A stretch of 64,000 bases of DNA from Escherichia coli (lineage in GTDB: Bacteria > Pseudomonadota > Gammaproteobacteria > Enterobacterales > Enterobacteriaceae), in assembly GCF_016903815.1 (NCBI RefSeq), contig NZ_CP069973.1. One strand, written 5' to 3'. Position 1 is the stretch's first letter, and the number at the start of each line of letters is the position of its first letter. Below, one piece after another: positions 45,799 to 59,601 of the stretch. The translations under genes and the position numbers were made by a program. Under the pieces are notes generated by a model. It made no database searches, had not been told where the DNA came from, and worked only from the letters and a program-made list of their open reading frames with translations.

Positions 45799-48700
45799 TT
45801 ACCAGTCGGCGTAAGGTATCAGCGGCTGCGGCGGTAAATCCATGTCACCCTGCCATCCGGCGGCGGAATAACGTACGTAGAGCAGGAAATGGCTGGGTGC
45901 GTAATCTTTCGCCTGCTGGATATCAATTGCCGTGCCGACAAACCAGTTGGAAGTAACACGTCGTTCAAGTAATGCCCGCGCCGTGTAGCCAAAGCCCTGA
46001 CTGCTGCCGCCATCGTTCGATTGCCGCGCAGCTTCTTCCTGCCAGTCGGTCGGGATCAGATTCATCAGCGGATAACGCGGCATGGTTTTGGTGCGTGAAT
46101 GCGACCACGAGCCAGACGCCCCCAGCTCCCACGACCAGTTTTCCGTCCGCTCACGCCACATCACCGGTATGGCAAACGACAGGTATTCCTGCGGGCTGTA
46201 GTAACCGCCCTGACCGAGTGAGTAGCCACTCAGGTCTTTGTCGTAATGCCAGATCATGTTGTTCAGGCCGATTGTGACGCGGCGATTGTTCTGGTTAATG
46301 ACCTTATAGTAATAGCCCGTCATCCAGCGCACACGCCAGTTATCTTCGACATTTTTACCGGTTAACTGGTCACCGCTAAGCGATGCCCAGACGCCGTTTG
46401 CTTCACCTTTATCGTAGCTCAGGCTTAGCCCCACGCCGTCGGCACGCACGCCACCCCATTTTTTCCCGGTATTGCTCGGGGAGTCTTTTTGCCCGCCAAA
46501 GGCCAGCAAAGAACTGGAAATGGGCCGACGATGGGCGTTAACGGTGTAACCCAGCGGCCCGATATCATCGCTGTAACTGATGCCGCCGACCACATCCACC
46601 ACGTTGAAGCCCATCGGCGTGGTACCGATATCCCAGCTCCAGACGTCATTTCGCCAGCCGACCGCCACGCTGGCACCGGAATCCGACTGGCTGCGGTTGC
46701 CGCTACAGTCCTGTAATGTACAGGTGCCCCAGTTGTCATCCCATTTGCCATCGGCATTCGTGGAGAAACTGCCAACGTTCATATTGACGAAATCACTGCG
46801 AAAGAACATCCGCCCGTCAGAATACGGCGCATCCACCTGCAACATGGTAGTGTGCGCTTTCAGATCGGAGTAACCACCGGTGCCGCTCGAACCCCAGTAA
46901 TCGTGCTCGAGGGTGACGTTAAGATCCTGCTGGCGATAGAGGTCAGCCGCATCGCTGCGCACGCCGCGTTTCAGCCAGTCATCTTTCTCGTCGTTACGGG
47001 TCAGCCGGGTAAAGGTGTCGTTATCCTGCGGACGCGTCGTGGTCACACCGGATGCAACCATGGCGTCTTTGTAGGTTTCCAGCGCCTGCGTTGGATCGCC
47101 CGCCAGCGCTTCAAACTTCGCACCATCACGCAGTACCATCGCGCTTTCCATCGACGGTGGCTGAGATTTTGCCTGCGGGATCAACTTATTAAATGTCTGC
47201 TGCGCCGCTGCGGTATCGCCAAGCTGCGCCTGTGCCAGCGCCGCTCTGTCCTGGTCATGACCAGAGAGATACAGCCCGTAAGCGTAAACCTGCTCCGGGT
47301 CGTTCGGCTTCTGCTGCGCCAGATTACGCATTAACGTATCGGCCTGGCTGCGTTGTCCGGCCTGCCAGAGATCCTGCGAAAGTCGGTAAGTAATCCATAC
47401 GCTGCCGGGGTCCAGCGCCAGTCGTTGCCGCTGAAGTGCTGCCGCCTGCGCCCATTTGCCCTGGTTTTCCAGTGCCTCTGCCTGCTGTGCCAGACGGTCG
47501 TTTTGCAGGCTGCGTTCGATATCATCAATGCTTCGCCGCTGACTGGCAGAGAGCGAGGCGATAAACGCTTCAGCTTTTTCTGGCGATTGCTGGCGGTATA
47601 TATTCGCCAGCCCGCGCACGGCGTTAGTGTTGCCGCTGTCCATACGCAAGGTCTGCTGATAATAACGTTCGGCGGCGGGATAATCTTTTCGCGCCATCGC
47701 CACATCGCCCAGCCCCAGCACTGCATAGCTGTCGGTGTTATCGACATTACGCGCCTGCTGGAACAGGCGTTCTGCCCGGTCAGGATTATTGGCTTTCAGC
47801 GCAGCATCGCCCTGCTGGATCGCCAGCCAGTAGCGGTTTACTTTCAGGAGACTGTTCCATTTGTCGTTGTTGCTGCTGTGCGGATCCAGGGCGAGGGCTT
47901 TTTCCAGATTCGCCACCGCATTGGCGCGATCGCCTTTCTGAGAATACGCCTGGCCCAGCGCCCCCAGAGCCTCACTGTCTTTCGGGTTCGCCCGCACTGC
48001 CTGTTGTAGTTCGGGAATGGCTTTACCCGCCATACCAGAGTCCACCGCCGCTAAACCTTGCGCACGAGCGCGGAAAGCAGGGTCGGCCAGCTGTTTTTGC
48101 TGTTCTGCCAGTTGCGATTGCGCCGCAGCTACGCTATCGCCATCACTAAAGATCGAGAGATATTTTTTCAGCGCCGACACACTGGCATCGCTGACGGGCA
48201 TGTCTTTAATCTGCCCGTACCAGATTTTAGAGGCCCCTTCGCGCCCGGCGTTTGATTTCGCCATCTGTTCCAGGACGGCAAAACCTTCGTCACGGCGATC
48301 GCTACTAAACAGCAATAGCGCCAGATTGTTTTGCAGGCCCGTATTGCCCGGCGTATCCGCATTAATGCGTTTTAGCTGATTAATCGCTTCGCCACGGCGA
48401 GCCGGAATTTTCGCCACCGTACTCCAGTACTCGACGGCAATGTCACCTTCCGGCGGCGCACCGTTGAACAGTTTGTTGTAACTCGCCACAGCTTCTTCTG
48501 CATGACCAGTAGTCGCCTGCAATCTTGCCTGTTGCAGTGCCTGACGACCATCCGGCGTGGAAAGCAACATTGTGGTCCGCGACGATTTATACGCATTTGA
48601 ACTCGGCGCTAACTGCGACAGCCGATCGAGCTGTTTTTGCGCGCCATCAATATCGCCCTGACGTAACAGAGAACGGAAACGGGCGGCAACGACGTCCGGG

Positions 48701-48882
48701 TTATTCGGATCAATAAGTTCCAGACGATACAACGACTGTTGCACCAGGTCTTCACGATGGGTCGCTTCGCCTAACCGAACTTGCTCCAGCAACTGTTGCT
48801 GAGCGGTTGGTGCTGCCTCGACCATCGGCATGACGGCCAGACCGAGGGAAAGCGTGAATATGTTTAGTGTGAATTTGCGCAT
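45799..48882 (-). CDS. bcsC: Cellulose synthase outer-membrane/TPR subunit BcsC, 1027 aa, apparently lacking a 130-aa internal TPR segment
   Basis: Signal peptide [26 protein letters not shown]-rich periplasmic region and C-terminal beta-barrel ending ...PLIPYADW. From memory K-12 BcsC is 1157 aa; here ...[10 protein letters not shown] joins directly to [11 protein letters not shown]. Confidence 0.9.
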
Positions 48883-57737: not shown

Positions 57738-57925
57738 TGACCATCAGCGATATCATTGAAATTATTGTCGTTTGCGCACTGATATTTTTCCCGCTGGGCT
57801 ATCTGGCGCGGCACTCTTTGCGACGCATTCGCGACACCTTACGTTTGTTCTTTGCTAAACCTCGTTATGTTAAACCGGCCGGGACGTTACGCCGCACGGA
57901 AAAAGCCAGGGCAACCAAAAAATGA
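57734..57925 (+). CDS. bcsF: Small membrane protein BcsF (63 aa)
   Basis: [27 protein letters not shown] single TM helix; start overlaps the bcsE stop (ATGATGA). Confidence 0.85.
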
Positions 57926-59601
57926 CTCAATTTACGCAAAATACCGCCATGCCTTCTTCCCTCTGGCAATACTGGCGCGGCCTTTCCGGCTGGAACTTCT
58001 ATTTTCTGGTTAAGTTCGGCCTGTTGTGGGCGGGATATCTTAACTTCCATCCGCTCCTCAATCTGGTGTTTGCCGCGTTTCTGCTGATGCCCATTCCGCG
58101 CTACAGCCTGCATCGCTTACGCCACTGGATTGCCCTGCCGATCGGCTTTGCTTTGTTCTGGCATGACACCTGGTTGCCTGGCCCGGAAAGCATAATGAGC
58201 CAGGGTTCGCAGGTGGCGGGGTTCAGTACCGATTATTTAATCGACCTTGTCACACGCTTTATTAACTGGCAGATGATTGGGGCCATTTTTGTTTTATTAG
58301 TGGCCTGGTTATTCCTGTCACAATGGATTCGCATTACCGTTTTTGTGGTTGCCATTCTGCTATGGCTGAACGTACTTACCCTGGCGGGACCAAGTTTCTC
58401 CTTGTGGCCAGCCGGTCAACCGACGACCACTGTAACAACGACGGGTGGCAACGCAGCGGCAACCGTTGCGGCGACGGGTGGCGCACCGGTAGTGGGTGAT
58501 ATGCCCGCACAAACTGCACCGCCAACAACGGCGAACCTTAACGCCTGGCTGAATAATTTCTATAACGCGGAGGCGAAACGTAAATCGACCTTCCCGTCTT
58601 CGCTGCCCGCTGATGCTCAACCATTTGAACTACTGGTGATTAATATCTGTTCGCTTTCCTGGTCGGATATTGAAGCCGCCGGGTTGATGTCGCATCCGCT
58701 GTGGTCGCATTTCGATATTGAGTTCAAGAACTTTAACTCCGCCACCTCCTACAGTGGCCCGGCGGCGATCCGTTTACTGCGCGCCAGCTGCGGGCAGACT
58801 TCGCACACTAATCTGTATCAACCGGCAAATAACGACTGCTATCTGTTTGATAACCTGTCGAAACTGGGCTTTACCCAGCACCTGATGATGGGACATAACG
58901 GCCAGTTCGGCGGTTTTTTGAAAGAAGTTCGCGAAAATGGCGGCATGCAGACCGAATTGATGGATCAAACAAATCTGCCGGTTATTTTGCTGGGCTTTGA
59001 TGGTTCGCCGGTTTATGACGATACCGCCGTGCTTAACCGCTGGCTGGACGTTACCGAAAAAGATAAAAACAGCCGTAGTGCCACGTTCTACAACACGCTT
59101 CCACTGCATGACGGCAACCATTATCCGGGCGTCAGCAAAACAGCGGATTACAAAGCGCGGGCGCAGAAATTCTTTGATGAACTGGACGCCTTCTTTACTG
59201 AACTGGAGAAATCGGGTCGTAAAGTGATGGTGGTCGTGGTGCCGGAACACGGCGGCGCGCTGAAGGGCGACAGAATGCAGGTATCTGGCCTACGTGATAT
59301 CCCTAGCCCGTCTATCACAGACGTCCCCGTTGGGGTGAAATTCTTCGGCATGAAGGCACCACATCAGGGGGCACCGATTGTCATCGACCAACCGAGCAGC
59401 TTCCTGGCTATCTCCGATCTGGTGGTTCGCGTTCTTGATGGCAAGATTTTCACCGAAGACAATGTTGACTGGAAAAAACTCACCAGTGGGTTGCCACAAA
59501 CAGCACCGGTCTCAGAGAACTCAAATGCAGTAGTTATTCAATACCAGGATAAACCGTACGTTCGCCTGAACGGCGGCGACTGGGTGCCTTACCCGCAGTA
59601 A
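57922..59601 (+). CDS. bcsG: Cellulose phosphoethanolamine transferase BcsG (559 aa)
   Basis: N-terminal TM helices with periplasmic alkaline-phosphatase-like domain; start overlaps the bcsF stop. Confidence 0.9.

Follow-up and report, generated by a model that had tools for sequence, protein, structure and literature searches.

The cellulose (bcs) locus considered here lies within a stretch of 64,000 nucleotides (nt) from Escherichia coli (NCBI RefSeq assembly GCF_016903815.1, contig NZ_CP069973.1), referred to below as the window, and carries a nonsense codon in bcsQ together with an internal in-frame deletion in bcsC. We consider it very probable, at roughly 85%, that the window belongs to the sequence type (ST) 405 clone of phylogroup D, that the two lesions are specific to this lineage and were fixed before its expansion, and that they constitute a documented case of the recurrent attenuation of cellulose production.

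Two lesions in the cellulose locus

The window holds a complete E. coli-type Bcs locus: according to the RefSeq annotation and comparison with K-12, none of the nine genes is missing and they form two divergent operons in the canonical order. The order is pdeK – bcsC-Z-B-A-Q-R on the minus strand followed by bcsE-F-G on the plus strand, and the locus adjoins pdeK/dctA on one side and ldr/yhjV on the other. Many complete E. coli chromosomes match positions 45799-59601 at 100% identity, and the RefSeq annotation agrees. The altered features are as follows, with protein lengths in amino acids (aa).

45799..48882, minus strand: bcsC with a 390-bp in-frame deletion, 1027 aa (K-12 comparison)
47234..47242, minus strand: bcsC deletion junction, the sole remaining copy of a 9-bp repeat (alignment with intact alleles)
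54942..55694, minus strand: bcsQ pseudogene, stop codon at 55335-55337, mutated base 55335 (translation, K-12 alignment and the RefSeq mark "internal stop")

Translation and K-12 alignment revealed a single internal stop in bcsQ, a TGA at codon 120 (W120*), which derives from TGG by one base change, G>A at gene nt 360. In an identical locus RefSeq flags bcsQ as a pseudogene with an internal stop, and the nonsense codon reported in an earlier, sequence-based note on this DNA (the original prediction) is confirmed. What is left is a 119-aa N-terminal fragment of BcsQ, a 250-aa ATPase of the SIMIBI/MinD type which forms part of the BcsRQ complex, cellulose secretion being "absolutely dependent" on BcsR and BcsQ (PMC7840130). 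Mutants of D150, N152, R156 and N171 were found in the same study to have reduced or abolished calcofluor binding and, because each of these residues is encoded downstream of codon 119 and is lost from the interrupted ATPase, the fragment should be inactive. W120* would most likely be the lesion that abolishes the secretion of phosphoethanolamine-cellulose (pEtN-cellulose), and it is the only one of the two lesions which we regard with confidence as a null. The natural bcsQ stop and the bcsA start overlap as ATGA and, since 390 nt now separate the premature stop from the bcsA start, ribosomes would end that far ahead of the latter and translational coupling to bcsA would be lost; transcriptional polarity onto bcsA is also plausible, and perhaps likely.

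In K-12, bcsQ is likewise a pseudogene, with one nonsense codon in an otherwise intact bcs locus and, in the account given in PMC5944007, repair of that stop restores cellulose, the effect of the stop being ascribed to loss of BcsQ and/or downstream polarity (Serra et al. 2013, cited in PMC5944007). However, the stop of K-12, a phylogroup A strain, is a TTG>TAG change at codon 6 (nt 17 T>A), a codon which is still TTG in the window, and K-12 retains a full-length bcsC, unlike the window. Judged from these alleles, the two bcsQ stops are independent events.

BcsC of the window has 1027 aa as against 1157 aa in K-12, and BLASTP alignment located the difference internally, both ends of the protein being intact and aa 551-680 absent. 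The gene had earlier been described as shortened, which is the right term, since the change is an internal in-frame deletion of 390 bp, removing 130 codons, and not a truncation. Intact bcsC alleles carry a 9-bp direct repeat, GGCGCTGGC (gene strand), that is present twice, 390 bp apart, while in the window one copy of GGCGCTGGC is left (47234-47242) and the other is gone together with the intervening 381 bp. Replication slippage or illegitimate recombination between these repeats would account for the loss of the 130 codons. An apparent extra single-nucleotide polymorphism (SNP) at bcsC nt 1650 was rejected as an artefact of gap placement at the repeat.

In structural terms, BcsC carries 19 tetratricopeptide repeats (TPRs) followed by a barrel, with TPR1-18 occupying aa 24-709, TPR1 docking on BcsB and TPR16-19 in contact with a putative cellulose ligand (PMC11379886). 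The shortened protein keeps the signal peptide, the N-terminal TPRs and the C-terminal beta-barrel domain (Pfam BCSC_C, aa 802-1136 of K-12 BcsC), so that, of the 19 TPRs and 16-stranded barrel that make up full-length BcsC, the barrel is kept and the TPR region lacks aa 551-680. If the repeats are evenly spaced, this segment amounts to about 3.4 TPRs and corresponds approximately to TPR 15-17; the loss would adjoin the putative cellulose-binding site and shorten the periplasmic solenoid next to the pore. On these grounds the shortened BcsC is probably impaired, although this would be moot while bcsQ is null. The original prediction of a doubly compromised machinery is upheld at the level of the sequence, but only bcsQ can be called a null with confidence, the change in BcsC being in frame.

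We also considered that the machinery might still work, with UGA read-through or re-initiation supplying BcsQ and the shortened BcsC acting as a functional variant. The sparing of TPR1 and the barrel by an in-frame deletion, and the intactness of all the remaining bcs genes, are consistent with this. Nevertheless, it appears very improbable: beyond the codon-120 stop, bcsQ showed no in-frame start codon accompanied by a Shine-Dalgarno-like motif, a C-terminal fragment would be without the Walker A region, secretion depends absolutely on BcsQ (PMC7840130) and, in the K-12 case as presented in PMC5944007, a nonsense codon in bcsQ abolishes cellulose.

Clonal distribution and age of the lesions

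The occurrence of short diagnostic sequences (k-mers) was screened in 5,426 complete E. coli genomes. A 41-mer over the bcsC deletion junction, which cannot match intact alleles, was present in 93 genomes, and a 33-mer centred on the bcsQ stop in 99, whereas a 60-mer combining that stop with an adjacent, haplotype-specific SNP was again found in 93. On this haplotype the bcsQ stop and the bcsC deletion travel together, and, by the counts from the 5,426 genomes (junction 93, haplotype stop 93), none with this haplotype was found to carry only one of the two. Similarly, the table of Nhu et al. 2024 (Nat Commun 15:1441; PMC10881479, Supplementary Data 3), a study which covered 76 common STs at 100 genomes each, contains no ST405 genome with a single lesion. 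Neither source therefore offers a single-lesion genome from which the order of the two events could be read. Assembly artefacts were rejected as an explanation because each lesion occurs in 93 independent complete genomes.

Strains WCHEC96200 and STO_Bone2 each carry the bcsC junction and the bcsQ stop; the former has been published as ST405, phylogroup D (PMC5762679) and the latter as ST405 (bioRxiv 10.1101/2022.05.07.487787). Several further carriers bear the strain name "405". We assign the window to the ST405 clone of phylogroup D, and it shows the double-lesion genotype of that clone, with bcsQ and bcsC below 99% of full length and the other bcs genes intact. In the definition of Nhu et al. 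a gene is truncated when its open reading frame is <99% of full length, which covers the in-frame bcsC deletion, and their Supplementary Data 3 lists truncated bcsC together with truncated bcsQ in 88/100 ST405 genomes, with one more in which bcsZ and one in which bcsE is also affected, giving 90/100; the source data show some bcs disruption in 94% of ST405 (PMC10881479). The ST405 mutations, described as cellulose nonsense mutations, are placed at a defined branch point that is followed by clonal expansion (PMC10881479, Fig. 6). The clone, the two genes and the reading of branch-point loss followed by expansion are the same as for the window and, since both lesions are listed by Nhu et al., the ST405 finding was already known at the level of gene and clone.

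Intact relatives were sought with a chimeric query, consisting of the bcsC flanks of the window and the missing 390 bp taken from strain 042. At >=99% identity and with an intact bcsC, it recovered only EFF60 (99.8%) and JNEC-KY178 (99.2%), in both of which bcsQ and bcsC are intact; E. coli 042 itself was rejected as the nearest intact relative, being only 98.8% identical. EFF60 differs from the window at 14/47,242 bases (0.03%) over positions 1-47242. Its bcsG carries a nonsense codon of its own, Q343* (EFF60 locus 26170-27849), a third separate bcs lesion in this small clade beside those in bcsQ and bcsC.

When polarised with JNEC-KY178, the derived changes on the window branch comprise, in the 13.8-kb bcs locus, four SNPs and the deletion, the SNPs being bcsZ A95V, bcsQ L29L, bcsQ W120* and bcsE A395G, and outside it five SNPs in 45.8 kb. 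The density within bcs is not significantly above that of the flanks (4 observed, ~1.5 expected; Poisson P ~0.07), and the four point changes on the ST405 branch (1 synonymous, 2 missense, 1 nonsense) are too few for a test of the ratio of nonsynonymous to synonymous substitution rates. At commonly quoted E. coli clock rates, a branch of ~1e-4 substitutions per site represents centuries at most. Because the lesions occur in one clone only (93/5,426), the nearest relative with intact bcsQ and bcsC is 0.03% divergent in the flanks and the locus carries four derived SNPs, the inference that both lesions are evolutionarily young is supported. The expanded clone shares them by descent, whereas its closest relatives, EFF60 and JNEC-KY178, lack them, and the searches argue against both alleles being widespread in deep-branching lineages of phylogroup D. 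The loss had originally been judged recent and not the outcome of long-term decay, with comparison of close relatives suggested as a means of dating it; that comparison, in which the intact bcsQ and bcsC of EFF60 bound the age of both mutations, together with the single-clone spread, the few flanking differences and the few bcs SNPs, bears the judgement out.

Several points weigh against this reading. The sameness of the two sets of 93 genomes is taken from their equal counts and from sampled rows, and the window was assigned to ST405 through identical published ST405 strains. With regard to function, the shortened BcsC could still work, given that its deletion is in frame and leaves TPR1, which contacts BcsB, and the barrel in place, and the position of the deletion within the solenoid assumes even repeat spacing. 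Polarity on bcsA and the cellulose negativity of the strain are predicted from the sequence, and the 390-nt stretch after the bcsQ stop shows no marked excess of C (0.25) or shortage of G (0.27), so that its composition is not distinctive of Rho utilisation. That 0/11 ST405 isolates showed a matrix-containing biofilm by electron microscopy (PMC3695789) lends weak and non-specific support to the lack of cellulose.

Intact genes of the locus and its surroundings

The remaining genes are listed below; all were defined from annotation and K-12 comparison, except pdeH, for which K-12 comparison was used.

48864..49970, minus strand: bcsZ, intact, 368 aa, with the lineage-derived A95V at window 49687
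49977..52316, minus strand: bcsB, intact, 779 aa
52327..54945, minus strand: bcsA, intact, 872 aa, its ATG overlapping the natural bcsQ stop (ATGA)
55706..55894, minus strand: bcsR, intact, 62 aa
56166..57737, plus strand: bcsE, intact, 523 aa, with the lineage-derived A395G at window 57349
57734..57925, plus strand: bcsF, intact, 63 aa
57922..59601, plus strand: bcsG, intact, 559 aa
43729..45717, minus strand: pdeK (annotated hmsP), intact, 662 aa, identical to the EFF60 copy
38520..39287, minus strand: pdeH, intact, 255 aa, with one lineage-derived synonymous change, H98H, at window 38994

The products of bcsZ, bcsB, bcsA, bcsR, bcsE, bcsF, bcsG and pdeK have K-12 lengths, 0 internal stops and 0-7 aa differences from K-12, and pdeH is intact with 2 aa differences. 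The earlier claim that bcsA, bcsB, bcsZ, bcsE, bcsF, bcsG, pdeH and pdeK are all full length is accordingly correct, although pdeK and pdeH fall outside the interval 45799-59601 to which it referred. Their intactness had also been seen as part of a pattern, with the surrounding c-di-GMP genes spared while cellulose was selectively lost. PdeH acts more generally, in the control of motility and of curli. Because of these other roles, and because so short a branch rarely disrupts any gene, intact pdeH and pdeK are weak evidence and add little to the case for selective loss.

Beyond bcsG, the ldr gene for a type I toxin is present three times in tandem (window 59688-59795, 60171-60278 and 60655-60762, minus strand), where K-12 has one copy, EFF60 two and strain 042 five. 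Mismatches between the window and EFF60 to the right of bcsG fall mostly inside this array; their probable source is not point substitution but a change in copy number or the mis-pairing of copies. On the other side, window positions 1-32000 are colinear with EFF60 at 99.97% and include ars, slp-dctR, the chu heme-uptake cluster, the hde/gad acid-resistance genes, mdtEF, treF and yhjB.

Selected or neutral loss

The bcsQ stop is not confined to the ST405 haplotype. Six genomes from outside ST405 also have W120* (G360A, TGA), spread over three other bcsQ haplotypes, which makes at least four backgrounds in all. A K-12-like haplotype is shared by CFSAN061762, PF9285, EC812A1 and MSB1_9I, which have an insertion sequence, IS1, in bcsE at one common site; in QL57EC, W120* is accompanied by an oppositely oriented IS1 at another position of bcsE, and in PI24 bcsE is intact. 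In locus coordinates, the W120* bcsQ of these six (L003-L005, L011-L013) lies at 10624-11376 and the IS1 in bcsE at ~12121-12884 in L003, L004, L005 and L013 and at ~12343-13094 in L012, with bcsE intact in L011. That the six represent basal ST405 strains was rejected, given their K-12-like or other haplotypes and a bcsC of full length in 6/6.

There are 37 possible transition-to-stop changes in bcsQ, and at two control sites the equivalent third-base change occurred in 0 genomes (W98) and in 2 genomes (W187). Visual inspection of the sequence around codon 120 gave no convincing Dcm site (CCWGG) and no convincing templating quasi-repeat. The counts suggest that codon 120 is hit recurrently, whether owing to a mutational hotspot, to selection or to short-tract recombination, although two control sites are too few to establish this, and the IS1 insertions in bcsE look like repeated secondary hits after a first hit in bcsQ. 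It is conceivable, but in our view unlikely, that codon 120 is a preferred route to cellulose loss, as a hotspot or a selected allele, and that selected second hits, such as the bcsC deletion of the window and the IS1 insertions in bcsE elsewhere, then take apart a partial Bcs complex that is costly or harmful to the cell; if this were true, double lesions would mark a two-step adaptive path and not one hit followed by neutral decay.

The original prediction spoke of a recent selective loss, and the second adjective does not follow from this sequence, in which selection is inseparable from hitchhiking. Selective loss is plausible from the literature, while neutral hitchhiking in an expanding resistant clone fits equally well. 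If the abolition of cellulose was advantageous, through more inflammation or translocation or through a lower host cost, it could have aided the expansion of ST405 as proposed for ST95 and other extraintestinal pathogenic E. coli, and we rate this as approaching an even chance. ST405 is named among the clones that expanded after cellulose loss-of-function mutations (PMC10881479), and bcs was hit in parallel in the sister strain as well as in unrelated lineages. Against positive selection, both lesions lie on a single branch and count as one event with no replication within the clone, and the statistics at the bcs locus alone are not significant.

The two lesions might instead be neutral passengers, cellulose being dispensable in the niche of the clone, with a chance bcsQ stop followed by a bcsC deletion under relaxed constraint, and the expansion being driven by, for example, antibiotic resistance; this we hold to be a substantial possibility, if short of even. 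It accords with the four SNPs in 13.8 kb of bcs not being significantly above the five in 45.8 kb of flanks, and with sporadic bcs disruptions in 74/76 common STs, which fit a large mutational target under weak constraint (PMC10881479). The IS1 insertions in bcsE at two sites after W120* elsewhere also resemble decay following a first hit. Less readily explained by neutrality are the experimental demonstration, reported for ST95, that bcsA disruption raises virulence and the expansion after loss in many clones (PMC10881479), the three different bcs lesions (bcsQ, bcsC and EFF60 bcsG) within a small clade and its sister, and the presence of the same W120* on at least four haplotypes.

Nhu et al. 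present ST405 as one case of convergent cellulose attenuation and clonal expansion, and bcs loss-of-function is also fixed in other successful pathogenic clones, namely ST95, ST1193, ST69 and ST141, as well as in Shigella and Salmonella (PMC10881479). Hits to two genes in one clone are frequent there, as in ST1193 and ST69, where bcsA and bcsC are affected. The genes and alleles of these cases differ from those of the window and, among the convergent cases as presented there, virulence data by experiment are given for the ST95 bcsA mutant only (PMC10881479). In the text and tables of that study, the ST405 entry consists of gene-level flags, in which the W120* TGA and the repeat deletion of aa 551-680 are not spelled out (PMC10881479). 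What is added here is allele detail: the exact stop codon, an in-frame and repeat-mediated bcsC deletion, a very close relative with intact bcsQ and bcsC and the recurrence of W120* on other haplotypes. These details serve the design of repair experiments and provide typing markers, and they leave the published picture unchanged. Cellulose is a major component of the E. coli biofilm matrix and dampens host inflammation, and its recurrent loss in successful pathogenic clones, among them ST405, a globally spread carrier of extended-spectrum beta-lactamase (ESBL) and NDM resistance genes, has been proposed to be a virulence-enhancing adaptation.

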